From a virus, in IMG/VR virus record IMGVR_UViG_3300032293_001730, positions 29,894 to 93,893 of that record: DNA of 64,000 bases; one strand, written 5' to 3'. Below are positions 7,845 through 63,991 of this stretch, piece after piece. Numbering within the stretch: position 1 is the stretch's first letter; each line of letters starts with the position of its first letter. The translations under genes and the position numbers were made by a program. The notes beneath the pieces are model-generated. The model searched no databases. It had not been told where the DNA came from and saw nothing but the letters and a program-made list of their open reading frames with translations.

Positions 7845-8720
7845 TTATCCTCGATGAATCGTCGGCAGGACGTGGCACGCGGGCGTGCTCAAGTCTGCAT
7901 ACCTGGGATCGAGGTATGCCTTCGTGATTTTTGGGCTTGAGTGATCGAGCAGGAGAGTTGGATTGCCTCCCCGTGCAGCGTAGTGACTCGCGGCACAGCG
8001 TCGGAGCTTGTGGAATTTTGCCTTCCTCCCGCTCCCCAGGCCCGCAGCCGTGACAATGTCGCCGAAACGCATCCAGATGTGCGTGTAGCAGCGATCCCAA
8101 CGCCAGATCAGGTCCGTCGGCTTCCGCCCCTCGCACAGCTTGCCCACGAGCAACGCCGTCTCGTCGGTGAGCGTGTAGAGCCGGTCCCGTTTGCCCCCCT
8201 TTCGGTTCTCGGCCCGGACGAGCAGCCGAGCCCCAGACCAGTCTTCCACACGGGCGGCGAAGATCGCGCCGCACCGTTCCGCCGACTCGTAGAGGACACA
8301 GATCAACGATCGCCAGAAAAGCCCGGCCGGCACGTCGCCGATTCGCCCAGGTGTCGCCCCGGCGATCGACACGAGGTGCTGTAGCTCCTCGACGGACCAG
8401 CACTGCGGAACTCGCTCCGGCAGTCGCGACGACGGCGGCACGCACGGGGAGACGTTCCTGATTCCACGGTCACGGGCAAAGCGACCCAGCGACACTAGCT
8501 GGCTTCGCTCCTTCTCGGCCGTGTAGGGGCTTCGTTGCTGAGCCCGCAGGTCGAGGAATCTCGACAGCACGAGATCGTCGAGATCGTCGACGGTGGCCTC
8601 GCGGGCTAGGTAGCGAGTGAATGTCCTGAGGGTGCAGCGATACAGGCGGGCGGTGTTTTCGCTTCGCCCACGCAGGCGAAGGGGGCGGAAGTGGTTCTCG
8701 AATAAATCGTTGAGTGTCAT
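7845..8720 (-). CDS. Tyrosine recombinase/integrase
   Basis: N-terminal SAM-like domain (SENTARLYRCTL); catalytic set R (SAERCGA), K (RKGGK), HKLRR, LLDHS, Y (TKAYLD). Confidence 0.9.
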   Translation of the reverse strand: MTLNDLFENHFRPLRLRGRSENTARLYRCTLRTFTRYLAREATVDDLDDLVLSRFLDLRAQQRSPYTAEKERSQLVSLGRFARDRGIRNVSPCVPPSSRLPERVPQCWSVEELQHLVSIAGATPGRIGDVPAGLFWRSLICVLYESAERCGAIFAARVEDWSGARLLVRAENRKGGKRDRLYTLTDETALLVGKLCEGRKPTDLIWRWDRCYTHIWMRFGDIVTAAGLGSGRKAKFHKLRRCAASHYAARGGNPTLLLDHSSPKITKAYLDPRYADLSTPACHVLPTIHRG

Positions 8721-8840
8721 GGCGTATCTCCAAATTACAGGGAAGGAGGATACGCATCCGTGCGAGGTAGTCATGCCTCCGTGGGGGGGCGCTCTCCTTC
8801 GAGAGAGGGCCCCCCGGGGTATGCCTTTTTGGACTAATCG

Positions 8841-50229: not shown

Positions 50230-50504
50230 TTGCGAGCGTCACCGTCGGAACGACCCAGGTGCAGGTCCTCCCCCCGCCATCGGGTCGGCCGTGGGCCTTC
50301 GTGGCAATCGGCAACAACGGCCCGAGCAAGGCATACCTCAAGCTCGTTCCCGACGCCGATGCCGTCACGGCCTCGAACGGCGTCCCGCTCGCGGTGGACT
50401 CCGTACTGATCTGCGACCAGGACCTCCAGAAGGAGCTTTTCCGAGGGAGCATCACGGCGATTGTGTCGTCGGGAACCACCACCATCTCGGTCCAGGCTTT
50501 CTGA
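50226..50504 (+). CDS. Small beta-rich structural-like protein
   Basis: IGNNG...AYL...T..NGVPL. Confidence 0.55.
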   Translation: MIASVTVGTTQVQVLPPPSGRPWAFVAIGNNGPSKAYLKLVPDADAVTASNGVPLAVDSVLICDQDLQKELFRGSITAIVSSGTTTISVQAF

Positions 50505-53500
50505 TGCCGTTCTGGGCAAACGAAAATACGATTTCCTTTGGCGGGGCCGCCCGCATCCTTCGACCGCGAGCCACGACTGCCGCTGCGCCGCCGTGCGCCA
50601 CGCCATCGTCCTTGCTCCTTCGCTTCGACGGCAACTTCACCGACTCGTCGGCCAATGCGTTGACGGTGACTGCGAATGGTGAGGCGGGGATCAGCACCGC
50701 GACGAAGAAATGGGGAAGTGGCAGCGCCTCATTTGATGGTGACGGAGACTATCTGACCGTGCCTACTGGCGGCACGCTGGGCTTCGGGATGGCTGATTTC
50801 ACAGTCGAACTGTGGGCGTTTGTTCCTCCTGACACCAACAACAATGAGCATGTGCTGTTCTCGCAGGCAGCCCCAACGGATTTCGTGGGCATCGCAATCT
50901 CGATTTACCAAAACGATCTCATGTGGCTGGCGGAAGGCGAAGGATCTTGGACGTTTCAGCGGTATCCCAGCGGCGGGCACTTTCCCGCTGGTTCCGTGAA
51001 TCCGAACGAATGGAACCACCTTGCTGTCACGCGGCATAACGGCGTCCTGAGATTGTTTTGCAACGGTCAGGTGGTGGACACCTACAGCGGTGCTATCGTG
51101 CTGGCCGACACAAACGAACTCGTCAGCATCGGCGGGAGAAGCAACTTCGGCCAATCATTCAGCGGCTACATCGACGATGTCCGCGTCGTAAAAAATCTGG
51201 CCGTTTACCAGGGCCCGTTCATCCCGCCCGCCGCGCCGCTCTCGCCATGCGCCACGCCGGTGCCGGTGCAGGCTGCGGCCAGCCTGCTCCTCAACTTCGA
51301 CGGCAACTTTACAGACTCGTCGCCCAATGCGTTGACCGCAACGGCACAAGGCAACGCCGTTGTCAGTACGACGCAGAGCAAGTTTGGCGGATCGTCGCTG
51401 TATCTGGATGGCTCAAGTACGGTGACGATTCCGTATGACGGGACGTTCGACTTTGGCTACGGCGACTTTACGATTGAAGCGTGGGTTCGGCCGTCTTCAA
51501 CACAGCCCGATACTCCATACGGACTTGTCTGCGCTGGCGGATTCCCAAGCGGCTGGGCGACGTACACCGGCGGAGGCGACGGTCAAACATCGCTGAACAC
51601 AGGCTCGCCTTCTTGGGGCGGCAACTCGCTTGGGCCGTCGCCCGCCAACGACGCATGGTCGCACATCGCTTTCACCAAACAAGGCACGCTATGCAGGTGC
51701 TACGTCAACGGCGTGCTGAACGGAACGGCGACGATCAGCGGTGCCTTCAATGCGAACAGCGAGCCGCTCACCATTGGCAGTGACCGGACTGATGAAGGGT
51801 ACAAATTCATCGGCTACATAGACGAACTCCGCATCGTTGAAGGCTTGGCCGTTTACACCGGCCCGTTCATCCCGCCGACTGCGCCGCTGGAAGTAAACGC
51901 CACGCCGGTGCAGGCTGCGGCCAGCCTGCTCCTCAACTTCGACGGCAACTTCAATGACTCGTCGCCCAACGCGTTGGCGGTGACGGCGAACGGCGATGCG
52001 GCGATCAGCACGACCACGAAAAAGTATGGCAGTGGCAGCGTGGAGTTGAATGGACTTTTTTCCAACGGCACAACCTCCGGCGTCACGGCGGCAGACTCAG
52101 TGGCGTTCGGTTTCGGAACCGGAGACTTTACGCTGGAGGGCTGGTTCTACTCTGACAATCCGTCTGCGAGCAATCACACGCTTTTCTCGGTTGGCACATT
52201 CCAAAACGGCGTGCTGGTACGTCTCGGCGGCGGCGGCTTCAACGACCCGGTGTACGTCAACGGGACGGCCTATGGGTACGCAAGCGGCCACAACTTTCCG
52301 AGTTCTCAATGGACGCACGTTGCTGTAGTGCGAAACGCAGGCACGCTCAAGGTCTACGTCGCAGGGCAGGAGAAACTGTCCGAGAATGCGAGCGATGACA
52401 TTGGCAGTTCCCGGCCGCTGTTTATCGGAACTTCTGGACACGCGTTTGAGAGCCAGGAATATGGCCCTTCGGATGCTTGGGTTGGCTACATAGACGATGT
52501 CAGGATCGTGAAGGGCTTGGCCGTTTACACCGCCAACTTCACGCCGCCCGCTGGGCCGCTCACAGTGAACGCTACGCCCTACGTTCCGCAACCTCCGGCC
52601 GCGCCGACGGGCGTCAGCGCCACCAGCGGCAATGGTCAGTTGTCGATTGCTTGGACTGCGCCCTATAGCGACTCAGCGATTACGGGCTATGTTGTCGAAT
52701 ACACGCCAGCGGGCGGCTCGGCAACAACGGTTAGCACTGGCAGCAGCGCGACGGTGTATTTGCTTACGTTTCTCACGAACGGCACGGCATACACGGTGCG
52801 GGTTGCGGCAATTAGTGCCGTAGGCACCGGCCCGTACTCGTCGGCATCTGCACCGGCAACGCCCGCCGCACCATCGTTCACGGCCACCGCCGTGATGCTG
52901 ACCTCAGGCACCTCATACACGGTGCCTGCTGGCGCGACGAGCATGAAAGCGTGGGCGGTGGGCAGTGGAACTTCCGGTGCCGGTGGCACGGCTTTCAAAA
53001 CATGGTCGGTGTCTGGCGGGCAGTCAGTGACCTATGCGGTCGGCAACAAATCCACCACCAATTTCGGCAACGACTCTAGCGTCACGTTCGGTGGCGCGAC
53101 GATTACGGGTCGCGGTGCTGGCAAGAACGCGAACGGCACGAACAAGAACGCCTTCGGCAGCGGCGGCGGCGAGTTCACGGGCGGCGACGGCGGCGTTGCT
53201 GGAGGTATCAACCAGTATCTCGGCGGCGGCGACACCCGATTCGGTGCTGTTGGAAACAATAACGCCGCCGCCACTGCCGCCACGATCTCCACGAAACCGC
53301 GATTTGCCGCCGCCGATGTTTCCGGGTTGTTCGCAGCACTCCAGTTGGCAGGAGAGAACACTACGCTATCTTCCGGCAATCCGCAGGCGTTCGGCTCTGG
53401 CGGTTTCACCGGCAAATATGACACGACCGCGCAGGCTGTTTCACCCGGTCGCGGCGGAGGAGGAGGCTACGGAACAGCGTCCAGCGGCACCCCGTTCACC

Positions 53501-53542
53501 GATAATCGCGTAGGCGGCGCAGTCGTTTTGTATTTCTCGTAG
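50504..53542 (+). CDS. Fibre/adhesin: three LamG (concanavalin A-like) domains, FN3 and a Gly-rich C-terminus
   Basis: Three SLLL.FDGNF.DSS.N...DFT.E.W...W.H.A...GYIDD.R repeats; PAAPTGVSA..GNGQ...WTAP...ITGY FN3. Confidence 0.85.
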   Translation: MPFWANENTISFGGAARILRPRATTAAAPPCATPSSLLLRFDGNFTDSSANALTVTANGEAGISTATKKWGSGSASFDGDGDYLTVPTGGTLGFGMADFTVELWAFVPPDTNNNEHVLFSQAAPTDFVGIAISIYQNDLMWLAEGEGSWTFQRYPSGGHFPAGSVNPNEWNHLAVTRHNGVLRLFCNGQVVDTYSGAIVLADTNELVSIGGRSNFGQSFSGYIDDVRVVKNLAVYQGPFIPPAAPLSPCATPVPVQAAASLLLNFDGNFTDSSPNALTATAQGNAVVSTTQSKFGGSSLYLDGSSTVTIPYDGTFDFGYGDFTIEAWVRPSSTQPDTPYGLVCAGGFPSGWATYTGGGDGQTSLNTGSPSWGGNSLGPSPANDAWSHIAFTKQGTLCRCYVNGVLNGTATISGAFNANSEPLTIGSDRTDEGYKFIGYIDELRIVEGLAVYTGPFIPPTAPLEVNATPVQAAASLLLNFDGNFNDSSPNALAVTANGDAAISTTTKKYGSGSVELNGLFSNGTTSGVTAADSVAFGFGTGDFTLEGWFYSDNPSASNHTLFSVGTFQNGVLVRLGGGGFNDPVYVNGTAYGYASGHNFPSSQWTHVAVVRNAGTLKVYVAGQEKLSENASDDIGSSRPLFIGTSGHAFESQEYGPSDAWVGYIDDVRIVKGLAVYTANFTPPAGPLTVNATPYVPQPPAAPTGVSATSGNGQLSIAWTAPYSDSAITGYVVEYTPAGGSATTVSTGSSATVYLLTFLTNGTAYTVRVAAISAVGTGPYSSASAPATPAAPSFTATAVMLTSGTSYTVPAGATSMKAWAVGSGTSGAGGTAFKTWSVSGGQSVTYAVGNKSTTNFGNDSSVTFGGATITGRGAGKNANGTNKNAFGSGGGEFTGGDGGVAGGINQYLGGGDTRFGAVGNNNAAATAATISTKPRFAAADVSGLFAALQLAGENTTLSSGNPQAFGSGGFTGKYDTTAQAVSPGRGGGGGYGTASSGTPFTDNRVGGAVVLYFS

Positions 53543-57765: not shown

Positions 57766-58176
57766 ATGGGCGAGAACGCAACTTCCTACGCGCTAGTCAG
57801 GCCCGACGGCAAGGTCGAGACGTTTCTGCGTTTAGACATGCCCGCAAACTGGGAGCCTGAAATCGGCTACTCAATCGTGCCTGATGACGAGTTGCCAGAA
57901 GGCTGGGAAAAGTATGAAGAGCCCGTGCCCGTTCCGACGACCATCAGCCCCCGGCAAATCCGCATTTGGCTAATCACGCACGGCATCCCGCTCTCCGTTG
58001 TCGAGCAGGCTATCGCCGGTATCCCCGACGAGACGCAGCGGCAGATTGTGCAAGTCGAGTGGGAGTACGCGCCCTACGTCGAACGCACACACCCGTGGCT
58101 TGAAGCGCTGGGCGCGGCCCTGGGAATGGACGCGGCGGCGATAGATCAGGCGTTTCGCGAAGCGTCGGTGATCTGA
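57766..58176 (+). CDS. Tail fibre assembly-like protein
   Basis: PVP.TISPRQIR, EWEYA...R.HP, ID.AF..A. Confidence 0.6.
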   Translation: MGENATSYALVRPDGKVETFLRLDMPANWEPEIGYSIVPDDELPEGWEKYEEPVPVPTTISPRQIRIWLITHGIPLSVVEQAIAGIPDETQRQIVQVEWEYAPYVERTHPWLEALGAALGMDAAAIDQAFREASVI

Positions 58177-61100
58177 TGGGCCGGAATAATCAGCGCGCGC
58201 TCACAAACCAGTCATTCAACCCAGCCGCCATCGGATCGATATATCTCTGGCTCGACGGCACTGACTCCAGCACGATCACGTTAACGAGTAACGCAGTCTC
58301 TGAGTGGCGAGACAAGTCAGATAATGCTCGTCACGTTACGCAAGCCACGGCGAGCCAGCGGCCTGTCATGGGTTTCTTAAACGGCCGCCCGGCAGTGCAG
58401 TTCACTGCTGCGAACAGCCAGACATTATCTCGCGCCGGGTCGTTTTTAGACGGCAACCCAGCGTTCACGACATTTGTCGTATTTCAGAAACTGTCTTCGC
58501 TGAACGTCACGCCGTTTGGTTGGGGCTCGCAAAACACGGGCGGTTTGTTTCTCTTGTTTCCGTCGCAGGTCGGCGGGTCTGCGTCGTCTTACTCATTCGG
58601 CGGCGCCACGACGTATCCGTTCGTTCTTAATAACGCCGACCCCGACTCGTTTCACCCATTAAACAAAACGTGGTTTGATTGCTTTGTAAAGCCCGCAGGG
58701 CCAGTGACGAATGCAAGGGCGTTTCGCAGCGGGCAGTTTTTTCCGTCCGCAGGCGCATCGACGGCGACGCCAAACATTTCAGGGCCGCTTGTCATCGGGC
58801 AGACGCCGGGTGTGCCCGCGCAAGTGTTTGACGGCCTGATTGGCGAAATACTCATCTACAACAAAGCGCTTACCGACACGGAGCGACAAGAAGTCGAGCA
58901 GTACATATCTAAAAAGTGGCGGATCACGCTCGCCAACTACAAACTCGCCACAAGCGTTGCCGCGCCCGCTGTTTCGTCGCCATTAGATATCTCTAACTGC
59001 GCCCTCTGGCTCGACGGCAGCGATACGTCGACGCTGTACACGACTGACGCTGGGCCGGTCACGGCAGTCACGGCGCCGACGGACATCAGCGGCTGCGTGG
59101 GGTGGTGGGACGCGAGTGACGCGACGACGCTATTTGCAGCGAATACAGGCACGACGCCCGCCACGACGACTGTTGGCCGCTGGGCAAATAAGGGCACGCT
59201 AGGCGCCACGGCTGACCTATTGCAGGCTACGGCAGCATCCCGGCCTACCACTGGCGCAGCGACGCGCAATGGACGAAACGTCATTCGATTCGACGGGACA
59301 GACGACTGGATGCAGCGTTCGTTTACGCTCGGCTTTCCGACGACGGCATTTATCGTATTCTCGTTCAACAACCCCTTTACGGCGACGCAAACGCTGCTTG
59401 ACGGAGTAGGCACCGGCAACACGCTGCGGCTTGCCACGACGGCGCAGACGGCGTTTCTGGCTTGCACCGGCGGTGTCTTGCCGCAGTTCACGCTTAACGG
59501 CTGGGGTGACATTCAGCCGTGGCAGGTCGCGTCCCTACTTGTTAACGGCGCAAGTAGCCTCGCTAGACGAGACGGCACCGTTACGGCTAATGGTTCTGGC
59601 ACGCTTGGCACGGTAACGGCACCAAGCGGCATCACGCTGGCTTCGTGGGGTGCGTCTGGTTCGCAATACGCTGACGTCAGCATTGCGGAGGTGATTGTAT
59701 TTAACAGCGCCCTCCCCGCCGCCGATCGCGCGCGTGTTGAAAAATATCTTGCCATCAAGTGGGCAATTAATCGCGTCCATGACACGCCGGGCGCGGGAGA
59801 CTTCGTCGGTTACTGGGGAGACAAGTCTGGCAACAGCCGACACTTTACGACGACAACGACTACCCGCCCGGCATTGGCTGCAACCGGTCGCGCTGGTGTA
59901 GTGTTCAACGCCTCGCCACTTTACAACACGGCTGCAAACCTGACGGTAACGGCTCAAACTACAGTCGTTGTTACGTCGCTCGACAATACTGTCACTAACA
60001 CTCGCATCTTCAGTCAGGTGCCGTCCAGCGGCGCAGACTTTTCAGTGGGTGGACATTACATACCGTTGCTGCGCACAAGCAGTTCGCTTGCAATATCATC
60101 GTGGGTAGACGGGACAAACCGTGCCAGCGTGTCTGTTGCCAACGCAGTCGGCGCCGTGATGGCGTCGGTTCATACCGGCACGTCTATCGTGAACTACGTC
60201 AACGGCGTGCGCTCCTCGGCATACACACCGACAGCCGCACTGAACCTCGCGGTTGCCACCATGTCGTTGATGGGCGACCAATCCGGCGCTGCGACAACAA
60301 CCGGCCGCGTCTCCGCCGTGCTCGTGTACAACCGGGCGCTCTCGGCTGCGGAGATTGCGTCGCTCACCTCGCACCTGTCGGCGACCTACGGAATCGGCGT
60401 GCTGGCGCCCGTCTCAGGCCACCCGGAAGTCCAAGACTGGATCAACCGCGTCTATCGTAACGGCGGCTCAGTGTCGCAGTACACGGCCGACCAAGTCACG
60501 TCGTTCGCTAGAGAGATCGACTCGGCTGGACTGCGTTCGCTGCTATACCGCGTGAATCTGTTTTGCGGCAATGATATCAATGCCGCCTTTGTGCCGCTCT
60601 ATCGTGGGCCCGTTGCGCTCGACACTAGATTTGGCAACGAGATCGACGTCACAACTGGTTCTGGCGTGGCGTTCACTTATTCAGAAGGCACAGGCTTGCA
60701 GGGCGACCCGGTGTCGAATGGCGGCGGGGCGCGGCGGTATCTCAACACTGGCGTAATACTGGGCGCTGTGCCGCAGTTAGTGGGCAATCACCACATCAGC
60801 GCATACACGAACAGACTGCCGTCGATTGGAGACGCCACTGTCGGCACACCGATCGGCGTATACGAAAGCGCTAGTCGTGGCATGACGCTGTACATAACGC
60901 AAGAAGTTTATAACGTCGGGGCCTTCGCGAACTCACTGCTCAATTTTGCCAACTCAACAGCGCCGAAAGCGCTACCTACGGATCGCGGGCATTACATCGC
61001 CAATCACATCTCGCCGATCCTGAACATTTATGAGGCGGGCACCAAGATCGGCGAACGTAACCTTACAGGCTTTTTGATTACGACGCCGACTGTTTTTCCA

Positions 61101-61280
61101 GTGTGCGTGTTTGCTGAGGGTCGACCTAGTCCCAGCGTGCCGCTCTTTAACTACACAAACCCGATGCAGGGCTATTCAATCGGCGCAGGGCTAACGGCGG
61201 CGCAGGCATTGGCGTTTTCGCAGATTATGGAGCTTTTCCAACAACGGCTTAGTCGCGGTAGACTGGTTGTTAGCGCGTAA
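58176..61280 (+). CDS. Multi-LamG-like virion protein
   Basis: Repeated LWLD.SD..T, W.DKS.N.RH and I.E...YN.AL...E...VE.Y...KW. Confidence 0.7.
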   Translation: MGRNNQRALTNQSFNPAAIGSIYLWLDGTDSSTITLTSNAVSEWRDKSDNARHVTQATASQRPVMGFLNGRPAVQFTAANSQTLSRAGSFLDGNPAFTTFVVFQKLSSLNVTPFGWGSQNTGGLFLLFPSQVGGSASSYSFGGATTYPFVLNNADPDSFHPLNKTWFDCFVKPAGPVTNARAFRSGQFFPSAGASTATPNISGPLVIGQTPGVPAQVFDGLIGEILIYNKALTDTERQEVEQYISKKWRITLANYKLATSVAAPAVSSPLDISNCALWLDGSDTSTLYTTDAGPVTAVTAPTDISGCVGWWDASDATTLFAANTGTTPATTTVGRWANKGTLGATADLLQATAASRPTTGAATRNGRNVIRFDGTDDWMQRSFTLGFPTTAFIVFSFNNPFTATQTLLDGVGTGNTLRLATTAQTAFLACTGGVLPQFTLNGWGDIQPWQVASLLVNGASSLARRDGTVTANGSGTLGTVTAPSGITLASWGASGSQYADVSIAEVIVFNSALPAADRARVEKYLAIKWAINRVHDTPGAGDFVGYWGDKSGNSRHFTTTTTTRPALAATGRAGVVFNASPLYNTAANLTVTAQTTVVVTSLDNTVTNTRIFSQVPSSGADFSVGGHYIPLLRTSSSLAISSWVDGTNRASVSVANAVGAVMASVHTGTSIVNYVNGVRSSAYTPTAALNLAVATMSLMGDQSGAATTTGRVSAVLVYNRALSAAEIASLTSHLSATYGIGVLAPVSGHPEVQDWINRVYRNGGSVSQYTADQVTSFAREIDSAGLRSLLYRVNLFCGNDINAAFVPLYRGPVALDTRFGNEIDVTTGSGVAFTYSEGTGLQGDPVSNGGGARRYLNTGVILGAVPQLVGNHHISAYTNRLPSIGDATVGTPIGVYESASRGMTLYITQEVYNVGAFANSLLNFANSTAPKALPTDRGHYIANHISPILNIYEAGTKIGERNLTGFLITTPTVFPVCVFAEGRPSPSVPLFNYTNPMQGYSIGAGLTAAQALAFSQIMELFQQRLSRGRLVVSA

Positions 61281-61311: not shown

Positions 61312-62055
61312 ATGACACGATCACGCATCCAAACGAACGGCATCGCAGACAACGCCGTAACGTCGGCCAAAATTGCGGCCAGCCCGGCGTTCACTGGCAA
61401 CGCGTCTTTTGTCGGCACCACTGCGCCTGTCGTGAGCCTACAAATAAATTCCGCAGTCGATTCCGGTGTACTGGCGCTTCGCGGGCGTACAAATGACGGC
61501 GCCGCGCTTTTGTATTTTCAAAACAACGCCGGGTCGCTCAATAACTGCTATATCGTTGGCTTCAACAACCAAATGGAGTTATACGGCGCAAATTACGTCG
61601 GGCCGCTTGTTATTGGGGCGACTGGGTTGCTTACTAGCCAGCCCACCTACGACAACACTGCCGCAGGCTCCGCTGTTGTCGTAACGTCGAGCGGCCAAAT
61701 CCGACGCACGTCATCGTCGCTCAAGTACAAGCAAGACATCGAGAATCTGGACTACACGATCGTTGTCAATGCCGTCGACAACCTGCGCCCTGTGTGGTAT
61801 CGCACGAAAACCCCCAGCGGCGACGACAAGACAACGTGGTCGCATGTCGGTTTGATCGCCGAAGAGGTCGCGGAGGTCGAGCCGAGGCTTGTGCGGTACA
61901 GGACCGTCGAGGTCACGGAAGCTGACGGCGTCCGGACGGAGACTGCCTTGGAAACGCCGGAACCGGAGGACGTCGACTACGGGCGGCTGGCCGTGCTCTT
62001 GCTGGCAGAGGTCAAGGCTTTGCGGGCGAGGGTGGCTGCTTTGGAGCAGGCGTGA
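61312..62055 (+). CDS. Tail fibre with C-terminal peptidase S74 intramolecular chaperone
   Basis: SSLKYKQDI, LRPVWY, GLIAEEV, VDYGRL..LL..VK.L..RVAALE. Confidence 0.85.
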   Translation: MTRSRIQTNGIADNAVTSAKIAASPAFTGNASFVGTTAPVVSLQINSAVDSGVLALRGRTNDGAALLYFQNNAGSLNNCYIVGFNNQMELYGANYVGPLVIGATGLLTSQPTYDNTAAGSAVVVTSSGQIRRTSSSLKYKQDIENLDYTIVVNAVDNLRPVWYRTKTPSGDDKTTWSHVGLIAEEVAEVEPRLVRYRTVEVTEADGVRTETALETPEPEDVDYGRLAVLLLAEVKALRARVAALEQA

Positions 62056-62269: not shown

Positions 62270-62512
62270 ATGATCGCCACGCTACGATTTGACCTGTCCG
62301 ATCCCGATTACGCCATCGCTGCGGAAGTATTTGACGAAGCCGCCAACTTGATTGAGCGCCTTCGGAACGAAGTCGCTAGACAGCGGCTCACCGGCGCGGA
62401 ACGTGAGGCGATTGAGTTGGCGGCAGGCGACTACCTCTACCACCAAGACGCTGGAGGCCGAGCGCAGTGGATTCGGACAACGCTGCTAGGACTACTGGAG
62501 CGGCTAGGCTGA
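62270..62512 (+). CDS. Small hypothetical protein
   Basis: LT.AEREAI...TLLGLLER; the stop lies within the attC-like site. Confidence 0.5.
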   Translation: MIATLRFDLSDPDYAIAAEVFDEAANLIERLRNEVARQRLTGAEREAIELAAGDYLYHQDAGGRAQWIRTTLLGLLERLG

Positions 62513-62560
62513 GAACGCTTGCGATCAGCGGCGCAGTCCGCTGCATCGCGTGGTTCTGGC
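62510..62560 (-). other. Integron attC-like recombination site (solitary)
   Basis: - strand: GCCAGAAC CACGC GATGCAGC GGAC TGC GCC GCTGATC GCAAGC GTTCTCA, i.e. AAC/GTT cores, 5- and 6-bp spacers and two extrahelical bases. Confidence 0.7.
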
Positions 62561-62579
62561 TTGCGAAAGGAGTGACAAA

Positions 62580-62894
62580 ATGACAACAGAAGGCATCGGC
62601 GGATTCATCCTTGTGTGCGCCGCTGCGGCGCTGATTACTGGCGTTCTGATTGGCTACGCCATTTTTGGCCGCTCGCCACAGCGCGCGCATCTGACTGACG
62701 GCTACGACGACGCCCTTATTCACCCCGAGACAACGCCTGAAGTGAAGTGGGTCAAGATGACCAAGCCGACCAGAGATACGCTGCTGGAAATCTACGCGGA
62801 GAACATGGACGAGTGCAGTCGGTACATGCAGGAGTGCGACCGCGTGACGATTGGCGAGTCGGCAATCATGTGGCTGATGGAGCGGAAGAAATGA
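62580..62894 (+). CDS. Membrane-anchored hypothetical protein
   Basis: RBS AAGGAG; N-terminal TM segment. Confidence 0.55.
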   Translation: MTTEGIGGFILVCAAAALITGVLIGYAIFGRSPQRAHLTDGYDDALIHPETTPEVKWVKMTKPTRDTLLEIYAENMDECSRYMQECDRVTIGESAIMWLMERKK

Positions 62895-63166
62895 CACGCC
62901 GAGAACTTCTGGCAACGCTGACGCTCGGCATTGCGGCCCACCCGCGTTCCGTCATTGGCCCGCAAGTGGGCGACACGATATGGGTTTGGGTGCCGCCGTC
63001 AAAAAGGTTGTGGATGGACGGAGCGTGGGTTGAAATGAGGGTGTGCGAGCGTTTCTGTAACCCGATTGGCAGGGACGGAATGCCACAGCAAGCCTTTTGG
63101 ATACCGCACCCAGTTGGCGTGCTGGATGGTAAGTTTCAAATTCAGTGGAGGTGGACAAGGCCATGA
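62891..63166 (+). CDS. Hypothetical protein
   Basis: MTRRELL (twin-Arg-like); coupled. Confidence 0.5.
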   Translation: MTRRELLATLTLGIAAHPRSVIGPQVGDTIWVWVPPSKRLWMDGAWVEMRVCERFCNPIGRDGMPQQAFWIPHPVGVLDGKFQIQWRWTRP

Positions 63167-63396
63167 GCGATTCAAAAAAAGCGTGGATGAGTGTCGAAGA
63201 CGGACTTCCCAAACACGGTCAGTGGGTAATCGCACGCACTGAGCGACGGCCGCTTGGATGCGACGACGATGAGTCGGGATGGCACATTTGCGTCTTTGAC
63301 AAAGACGACAAGTCGTTCACGCGGGCTGATTTGTTGATGATTGATGCGACGGAATGGCATGCGCTCCCGTCTCCGCCAAGGAGGAAAGACAAGTGA
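63163..63396 (+). CDS. DUF551-like small protein
   Basis: WMSVEDGLP...TEWHALPSPP. Confidence 0.65.
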   Translation: MSDSKKAWMSVEDGLPKHGQWVIARTERRPLGCDDDESGWHICVFDKDDKSFTRADLLMIDATEWHALPSPPRRKDK

Positions 63397-63716
63397 GCGG
63401 AAAGGGGCTGGAGCCGTTTGCGTGGGCTGTGATCGCGCCGGATTGCCAGTACGTGTCCCTGTTTCGCGAATCGGCAGAGGCCGCCGCTGCGCAAGAGGGC
63501 GGTACGGTCGTTCCTATATATCGACATCCAACGCTCACCGACGAGGAGCCTGTACTCACCGACTTAGAGCGTGCTGTGATTGAGCGGAGTTCTGCCTTGC
63601 ACTTAGCAAAAGCCGATGTGGCTACGGCGAATAAACAATACTCACTCGCCATGTATCACAAAGAGGACGCGAAAACTCTGGACGGCTTGCTGAAACGAGT
63701 GTCGCTGCGATCTTAA
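63393..63716 (+). CDS. Hypothetical protein
   Basis: EPFAWAV, VVPIYRHPTLTDEE, TLDGLLKR. Confidence 0.55.
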   Translation: MSGKGLEPFAWAVIAPDCQYVSLFRESAEAAAAQEGGTVVPIYRHPTLTDEEPVLTDLERAVIERSSALHLAKADVATANKQYSLAMYHKEDAKTLDGLLKRVSLRS

Positions 63717-63733: not shown

Positions 63734-63991
63734 GTGGTGCAGAACATGAGCAGGAACGCTCAAGGCCCGCGTTCGACTCGCGGCCTCTCCATTTCAAGGT
63801 CCGATAGGAAGCGGTTGGCCCGATTGGATCGTGACATCGGGTGGTTTGATCGTGCGATGGCTTGCGTCCTTGTGCAGATTGAGGAAAAGCGGATGGTGCG
63901 GCTGCAATCAGAGCGTGCAAAACTGGACGCTCGCCGGAAAGCACTGAGGCTGGCGATGAAGGCGAAGAAGAAGGCCAGACTGCGCTACTGA
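63734..63991 (+). CDS. Basic hypothetical protein
   Basis: RBS GAGG; Arg/Lys-rich. Confidence 0.45.
   Translation: MVQNMSRNAQGPRSTRGLSISRSDRKRLARLDRDIGWFDRAMACVLVQIEEKRMVRLQSERAKLDARRKALRLAMKAKKKARLRY

Follow-up and report, generated by a model that had tools for sequence, protein, structure and literature searches.

Integrons are treated as bacterial gene-capture devices. Their integrase IntI is a relative of Xer whose specific insertion contacts extrahelical bases, and in the standard layout the strand whose 3′ end faces intI is the bottom, recombinogenic one. In T4-type phages, PeSL cassettes were reportedly described by Arbiol et al. in 2010 as promoter-plus-terminator units swapped by homologous recombination. 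In the case of attC(aadA7), the bottom strand carries AAC on its 5′ arm and the extrahelical bases G16 and T23 on the opposite arm (Nivina 2016, PMC5027507). Natural attC sites measure 57-70 bp for the small sites of mobile integrons and 133 bp for VCR2 (PMC5027507). Phages also carry such sites: 17 integrase-free clusters (CALINs) were found among 10,705 cultured/GenBank phages, some phage attC sites are substrates of bacterial IntI in trans and are recombined by IntI1, and the two virulent-phage arrays singled out in that study have the usual gene orientation (Qi et al. 2023, Front Microbiol, PMC9892861).

The DNA analysed here is a stretch of 64,000 nt, hereafter called the window. It makes up the right-hand 64 kb of an IMG/VR virus record that spans 93,893 bp and has an estimated completeness of 96%. 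A sequence-only reading had proposed that it carries a solitary attC-like site, oriented opposite to the phage genes, through which a host integron integrase could swap genes or integrate the phage. We consider it probable that this 50-base hairpin is indeed an integron-type attC recombination site, used with an integrase supplied in trans. Like the CALINs of Qi et al. 2023, it is a phage-borne attC without IntI. In contrast to them, it belongs to a family whose sites face the opposite way to their genes and stand, in relatives, in arrays of at least a dozen, although the window site itself is single and thus below the two-site CALIN definition. PeSL elements and the attC family are both repeated intergenic elements where phages exchange small accessory genes; the present site differs by the lack of a promoter, by being a structured, predicted recombinase substrate and by family breakpoints that fall on one trinucleotide.

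An attC-type site between two small phage genes

The site, its parts and its neighbours are as follows.

58176-61280 and 61312-62055: tail-fibre genes, upstream of the two small genes that precede the site
62270..62512, + strand: upstream gene, 80 aa, second of the two small genes; its TGA stop (62510-62512) forms the first three bases of the site
62510..62559, + strand: whole attC-type site, matched by the covariance model R1 (46.5 bits), DNA fold -14.0 kcal/mol against -13.3 on the - strand; + is the bottom-like (recombinogenic) strand
62510..62516, + strand: 5′ R box TGAGAAC (R′ in bottom-strand terms), with AAC at 62514-62516
A62515 to C62516, + strand: predicted cleavage between these two bases, the A/C position being taken from Nivina 2016
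62517..62522, + strand: 5′ central spacer GCTTGC, 6 nt; varies in sequence across the family, partly paired in the window copy
62523..62531, + strand: 5′ arm of the L box, GAT-CAGCGG (GATCAGCGG); same letters as in Planctomycetota integron sites
62532..62537, + strand: terminal loop CGCAGT (CGCAG 62532-36, T 62537), the variable terminal structure at its minimum, in which T62537 is the counterpart of the second extrahelical base (position 23)
62538..62547, + strand: 3′ arm of the L box, CCGCTG-C-ATC (CCGCTG 62538-43, C 62544, ATC 62545-47); extrahelical C62544 is position 16 from the 3′ end
62548..62552, + strand: 3′ central spacer GCGTG, 5 nt, read from the sequence
62553..62559, + strand: 3′ R box GTTCTGG (R″), with GTT at 62553-55
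62580..62894, + strand: downstream gene, 104 aa with a hydrophobic N-terminus, RBS AAAGGAG at 62566-62572; first gene of a putative cassette beginning at C62516

On the + strand the site reads TGAGAAC-GCTTGC-GATCAGCGG-CGCAG-T-CCGCTG-C-ATC-GCGTG-GTTCTGG, the exact reverse complement of the - strand read previously, CCAGAAC-CACGC-GAT(G)CAGCGG-(A)CTGCG-CCGCTGATC-GCAAGC-GTTCTCA. It forms an inverted repeat with R box AGAAC/GTTCT and L box GATCAGCGG/CCGCTG(C)ATC, has the bases at positions 16 (C62544) and 23 (T62537) opposite the AAC arm, and its central spacers of 6 and 5 nt match attC lengths. The attC-like architecture proposed at the outset was thus recovered. The succession of R box, 6/5-nt spacer, 3 bp, base 16, 6 bp, base 23 and small terminal structure is that of the attC(aadA7) bottom strand, hence the + strand is the bottom-like one. 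Unlike in attC(aadA7), base 16 is C and not G, the L-box letters differ and the terminal stem is missing. This absence explains the length of the site: at 47-50 nt it falls below the 57-70 bp range of small mobile-integron sites.

Of the two extra bases claimed initially, C62544 is a true bulge, the only one of the window site. T62537 (the A of the - strand reading) is instead a loop-edge base of the 6-nt loop in this short copy; long members of the family have a genuine bulge at this position. The predicted fold also pairs most of the central spacer, leaving one bulge and one T/T mismatch. The cores TGAGAAC and GTTCTGG depart from RYYYAAC/GTTRRRY, as had been noticed, which is a further difference from attC(aadA7); the outer R box is YRRR-AAC. 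Arrays of Luteolibacter (L150/L151) share this deviation, xxCAG-AAC/GTT-CTGxx, with boxes GGCAG-AAC/GTT-CTGCC and GACAG-AAC/GTT-CTGTC. The consensus is accordingly not universal, and since xxAG-AAC/GTT-CTxx occurs in these arrays the non-canonical core does not disqualify the phage site.

As DNA, the exact 50-mer folds with -14.0 kcal/mol on the + strand and -13.3 on the - strand (z=-2.3 and -2.6), which is modestly unusual; in wider context the values are unremarkable (z=-0.5 for 91 nt, z=-0.8 for 71 nt). Folding was therefore dropped as the main criterion, and it is homology that lifts the site above chance.

The site lies exactly between the two small genes and contains the upstream stop, both as read before. 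It lies in a 67-nt gap, the sole real one in a series of small genes whose ends elsewhere overlap by ATGA/GTGA. Four small genes linked by such overlaps follow it (62580-62894, 62891-63166, 63163-63396 and 63393-63716, the third a DUF551 gene), then, after a 17-nt gap, another small ORF (63734-63991). Related arrays often contain DUF551 genes as cassettes; in the window the downstream genes have no sites between them. Relatives of the 104-aa protein were searched among viral contigs and none was found. Elsewhere, the window carries three tandem repeats of ~650 bp, 64-81% identical (50590-52578), inside a 1083-aa ORF (50291-53542) whose neighbours are structural genes.

Viral and bacterial copies of the site and the polarity of their genes

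The family came to light when the 80-aa protein was used as a query against viral contigs. Unrelated contigs encode homologues of the 46 residues at its C-terminus, and on three of these contigs (L001, L002, L006) the homologous gene is followed by the same element. This module, the last ~46 residues of the protein, is 80-87% identical (window 62370-62509; L001:3001-3138, L002:3001-3138, L006:2-106), the N-terminal parts differ, and a tail ...LLERLG or ...LLERTK before the stop ends many array cassette proteins; common tails with differing N-termini indicate that exchange also takes place inside genes, at the module's edge. In L006 (100-190), 27 nt separate the stop of the homologous gene from the site, whose TGA is again in the same frame; this spacing may represent an insertion or the trace of an older junction. 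Stop-codon readthrough, or a SECIS-like hairpin after the TGA, was considered and rejected: L001 alone keeps the frame open as far as the next ORF, whereas in L002 a stop interrupts it.

The three contigs share the boxes GAGAAC, GATCAG, CTGCATC and GTTCT, with 6-nt and 5-nt spacers of varying sequence and, in L002, a compensatory change CAGGAG/CTCCTG. Some copies have a centre of 6 nt, others one of ~50 nt. The pattern GAAC-N6-GATCAG-N(6-36)-CTGCATC-N5-GTT occurs in 115 IMG/VR stretches, and allowing a longer centre yielded 186 copies in the collected loci. Neither the 4-kb region nor the 55-nt element had a match among GenBank phages (50,697 records). About a third of the sites (L032, L053, L027 and others; e.g. 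L053:2656-2737) have the ~50-nt centre, which forms an extended stem. These long copies of ~90 nt hold the RBS and start codon of the next gene in their loop, and their 3′ arm is translated as an N-terminal ..S-A-A-S-x-G-S.. sequence.

In bacterial genomes the same pattern picks out Planctomycetota and Verrucomicrobiota; the site type is present in 46 of the 151 Planctomycetota genomes sampled. The Planctomycetota MAG MFD02579.bin.2.73 carries several intI genes above the TIGR02249 cut-off, with arrays at three of them (loci L234-L236). These three arrays start 0.5-0.9 kb from intI, always on the strand whose 3′ end faces it, and their sites read gtctAAC-N6-GATCAGCGG-CCCGCG...CGCGGG-T-CCGCTG-C-ATC-N5-GTTagac. 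Sites of sedentary chromosomal integrons of Planctomycetota/Verrucomicrobiota thus have the phage's L box, GATCAGCGG/CCGCTG-C-ATC, together with the same AAC/GTT, 6/5-nt spacers and bulge positions 16 and 23, and the AGAAC/GTTCT core of the phage site recurs in Luteolibacter. The phage copy differs from them in several respects: it measures 50 nt against 58-61 nt, because its stem does not continue past the second bulge; the outer box reads YRRR, against RYYY in Planctomycetota; it is solitary, with no intI nearby; and its genes lie on the bottom strand, against the top strand in these integrons.

To compare the copies, a covariance model (R1) was built from 38 bacterial sites only, with covarying stems, several of them in arrays adjoining intI genes. 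Because the pattern used to pick these training sites fits the phage site too, the R1 score of 46.5 bits (E=1.8e-10) at 62510-62559 on the + strand measures likeness and not fully independent discovery. The match is strand-asymmetric, the - strand scoring 8.9 bits. The covariance-model check suggested by the sequence-only reading thus returned a hit, with a model of our own. The next best match in the window reached 14.2 bits and the remaining 30 kb of the 94-kb genome gave none. The site is consequently solitary in 93,893 bp, as claimed, and fits the single-attC class; a CALIN would have at least two attC close together without integrase. On 1.0 Mb of viral loci R1 found 249 matches, in same-strand arrays with 300-400 bp spacing (a stricter detector gave 12 sites in L032 and 10 in L074); among them the window score is mid-range, with all conserved positions intact. 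AAC/GTT is invariant in the 38 bacterial and 138 phage copies. In the phage copies, 99.8% of helix 2 (L box plus the stem past it) is paired, 13 pairs being changed on both sides.

The polarity of the genes is inverted between the two groups. Cassette ORFs in the three Planctomycetota integrons lie on the strand opposite to AAC-N6-GATCAG...CTG(C)ATC-N5-GTT, and at bacterial sites ORFs end on the opposite strand in 52 of 82 cases, versus 22 on the pattern strand. In phages, an ORF of at least 60 codons ends at the site on the pattern strand in 156 of 173 cases. Phage cassettes are thus back to front, their genes being encoded on the bottom-like strand, contrary to those of bacterial cassettes. 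The bottom strand of the three Planctomycetota integrons corresponds to the coding strand in the phage, so that the orientation opposite to the genes was rightly seen. The homology of the site, its geometry and its strand are established by these comparisons.

Cassette signature and breakpoints in the viral family

We then compared, along the phage arrays, the outer box after the GTT of each site with the box before the AAC of the next. These are complementary at 4.40 of 5 positions, 63 of 107 perfectly; boxes in situ reach 2.73, and random partners 2.66 with a maximum of 3.06 (2000 permutations). In bacterial arrays, too, the outer boxes are complementary to those of the next site. Units that each passed through a circular form closed across the R box would be expected to leave such a pattern, and the family accordingly has the mark of gene cassettes, complementary outer half-boxes whose in-situ neighbours are not complementary. 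For the window copy, the bases after GTT (CTGGC) and their in-situ counterpart (CTGAG) are complementary at 2 of 5 positions. Unpaired outer halves are expected if the two stem from different cassettes. A search for partner boxes (GCCAG-AAC downstream, GTT-CTCAG upstream) returned chance-level matches only, hence no cassette can be delimited at this copy.

Comparing relatives for breakpoints, as had been advised, located several recent ones on the coding-strand 5′-AAC-3′. In L053 and L083, which hold an identical cassette between differing neighbours on both sides, the gene keeps its upstream hairpin (similarity 0.95) but not its downstream one (0.16); identity ends exactly after the AAC of the next site, and likewise in L045/L053. 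Among the internal ends of inter-locus matches of at least 97% identity, 10 of 23 fall within -6..+7 of the C of AAC, and one, at +88, falls roughly at the position expected for the 3′ GTT in a long copy. The sample is small (three clean junctions from three contigs, 23 match ends in total); linkage tests with 30-nt flanks were uninformative, those with 150-nt flanks and identical cassettes informative. The position of the breakpoints points to a crossover at the 5′-AAC-3′ of the coding strand, as for IntI on the bottom strand. Cassette-type mobility with AAC breakpoints is thereby established for the copies of the family in other phages. The gene swapping by an integrase in trans that had been put forward fits this cassette signature, the AAC breakpoints and the related arrays; phage integration, the other half of that proposal, found no support. 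Sharing of cassettes between phages and bacteria was looked for with 123 phage inter-site ORFs, and no tblastn match was found in ~0.7 Mb of bacterial loci.

In older pairs (L023/L047, L021/L066) the hairpins are chimeric, with joints between both spacers, indicating that ordinary homologous exchange inside the hairpin also occurs. Such joints would suit an element that only looks like attC, either a PeSL-like linker for homologous recombination or template switching, or an RNA hairpin for processing, stabilisation or weak termination. The hairpin is indeed intergenic and on the mRNA strand, and the early genes of the same phage are shuffled at promoter-operator repeats. We nevertheless give this explanation the smallest chance of those considered, since it leaves unexplained the outer-box complementarity to the next site, the AAC breakpoints, the conserved bulge positions and spacer lengths, and the near-identity to bacterial sites transcribed on the opposite strand. 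Moreover, scanning for terminators and promoters gave no match at the site, the hairpin is not followed by a U-run, and an Rfam scan of 61-64 kb at E<=10 gave noise only.

A PeSL-like system is present elsewhere in the same phage genome (window ~14-27 kb). There, between 14418 and 26660, a dozen near-consensus promoter units have the palindrome CACCG-N4-CGGTG in their spacer, and a conserved leader and an RBS come after each.

The integrase and the role of the lone copy

The absence of a recognisable IntI, first stated for the window, extends to the whole phage genome, which gave no TIGR02249 match; the same holds for 42 site-bearing viral records (32-204 kb, eleven at least 90% complete). A complete integron, in which an IntI with its specific insertion, attI and Pc stand next to the array, is accordingly not found here. 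Hairpin ends of the IS200/IS605 type were also rejected as an explanation, no Y1 transposase being found in 27 site-bearing viral records. The phage encodes one tyrosine recombinase:

7845..8774, - strand: sole tyrosine recombinase, Xer-like, 309 aa; PF00589, with weak XerA/XerD matches; 54 kb from the site

The family of this enzyme (window 7845-8774, - strand; L242-L250) has ~290-350 aa, an N-terminal ..PLKLRGRSENT.. and a C-terminal LP motif. Its action on the sites in place of an integron integrase would agree with the presence of PF00589 recombinases of this one family in 14 of 27 site-bearing viral records, the window phage included, and with the kinship of IntI and Xer. We regard it as very improbable, however. 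All three bacterial IntI aligned have the ~45-aa IntI-specific insertion, which the phage enzyme lacks, and the family of this enzyme is absent from four of the 12 records that are at least 90% complete, among them a 204-kb genome with terminal repeats. It never adjoins the arrays either (~8 kb away in G018/G022, none within ~10 kb in six others, 54 kb in the window phage), and the same site type adjoins true intI genes in bacteria. A recombinase without the insertion, in a phage without its own IntI, suggests that the acting enzyme probably comes from the host or from another phage. An IntI of the host or of a co-resident phage acting in trans is the most economical reading.

A prophage search in 401 Planctomycetota genomes, with the phage recombinase as query, found only two homologues of ~30% identity, too little for host assignment. 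A separate search with an IntI alignment identified 14 IMG/VR contigs with an IntI 48-59% identical to the Planctomycetota enzyme, and scanning the best 17 loci of this search with R1 showed R1-type sites nearby in three. On one 53-kb viral contig (L262:7995-10857), the IntI is 56% identical to the Planctomycetota enzyme and three such sites lie past the 3′ end of intI on the opposite strand, unlike the classical divergent intI-attI layout.

In the mechanism that we favour, an attC site recombined in trans, the + strand, single-stranded or as a cruciform, would fold into the bottom-strand form. An integron integrase, supplied by the chromosomal integron of a Planctomycetota-/Verrucomicrobiota-like host or by an IntI-carrying co-resident phage, would bind the folded + strand and cut between A62515 and C62516. 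Everything downstream of the cut, namely the hairpin core and the following genes, would be swapped for cassettes of other phages or for cassettes in free circular form. Genomic sites other than att sites can also receive attC cassettes through IntI1 (bioRxiv 10.1101/2022.09.11.507474), and such an event would account for a site standing alone. The window site presumably came in at the front of the downstream gene block, possibly through an insertion of this kind.

The lone copy could instead be a fossil, a true attC by descent that was left when the downstream block was acquired, is no longer recombined and serves at most as an intergenic mRNA hairpin. It is the sole copy in 94 kb, the window holds no second cassette boundary, the downstream genes are chained by ATGA/GTGA overlaps without any site, and the hairpin has a minimal terminal structure and a partly paired spacer. 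Yet its 46.5 bits are as high as those of copies in active-looking arrays, every conserved position is intact, and small attC terminal structures are those that extrude most readily from double-stranded DNA (review PMC8946536). We therefore consider a fossil unlikely; the copy may still be used by an enzyme acting in trans.

Clusters of attC in phages have already been published (PMC9892861), but only a handful of them, in cultured phages. The lone site of the window leads to a reversed family with hundreds of copies in uncultured phages; a literature search found no paper on a reversed, Planctomycetota/Verrucomicrobiota-type phage attC family. The copies of this family bear the marks that an integrase leaves on cassettes, yet their genes run the opposite way: each gene comes after its hairpin, the bottom strand codes, and start codons often lie inside the hairpin loop. 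We put forward, tentatively but as a quite possible scenario, that phages of Planctomycetota-/Verrucomicrobiota-like hosts keep their own 'reversed' cassette pool, shared among unrelated phages of 32-204 kb via borrowed integrases, with the lone site as a docking point. In an extreme case, the whole phage genome would be a giant cassette able to enter the integron of the host. If this is true, phages would trade accessory genes through the integron integrases of their hosts or of other phages, a second, phage-only cassette pool would exist, and strand choice in integron recombination could be coupled to transcription of the bottom strand.
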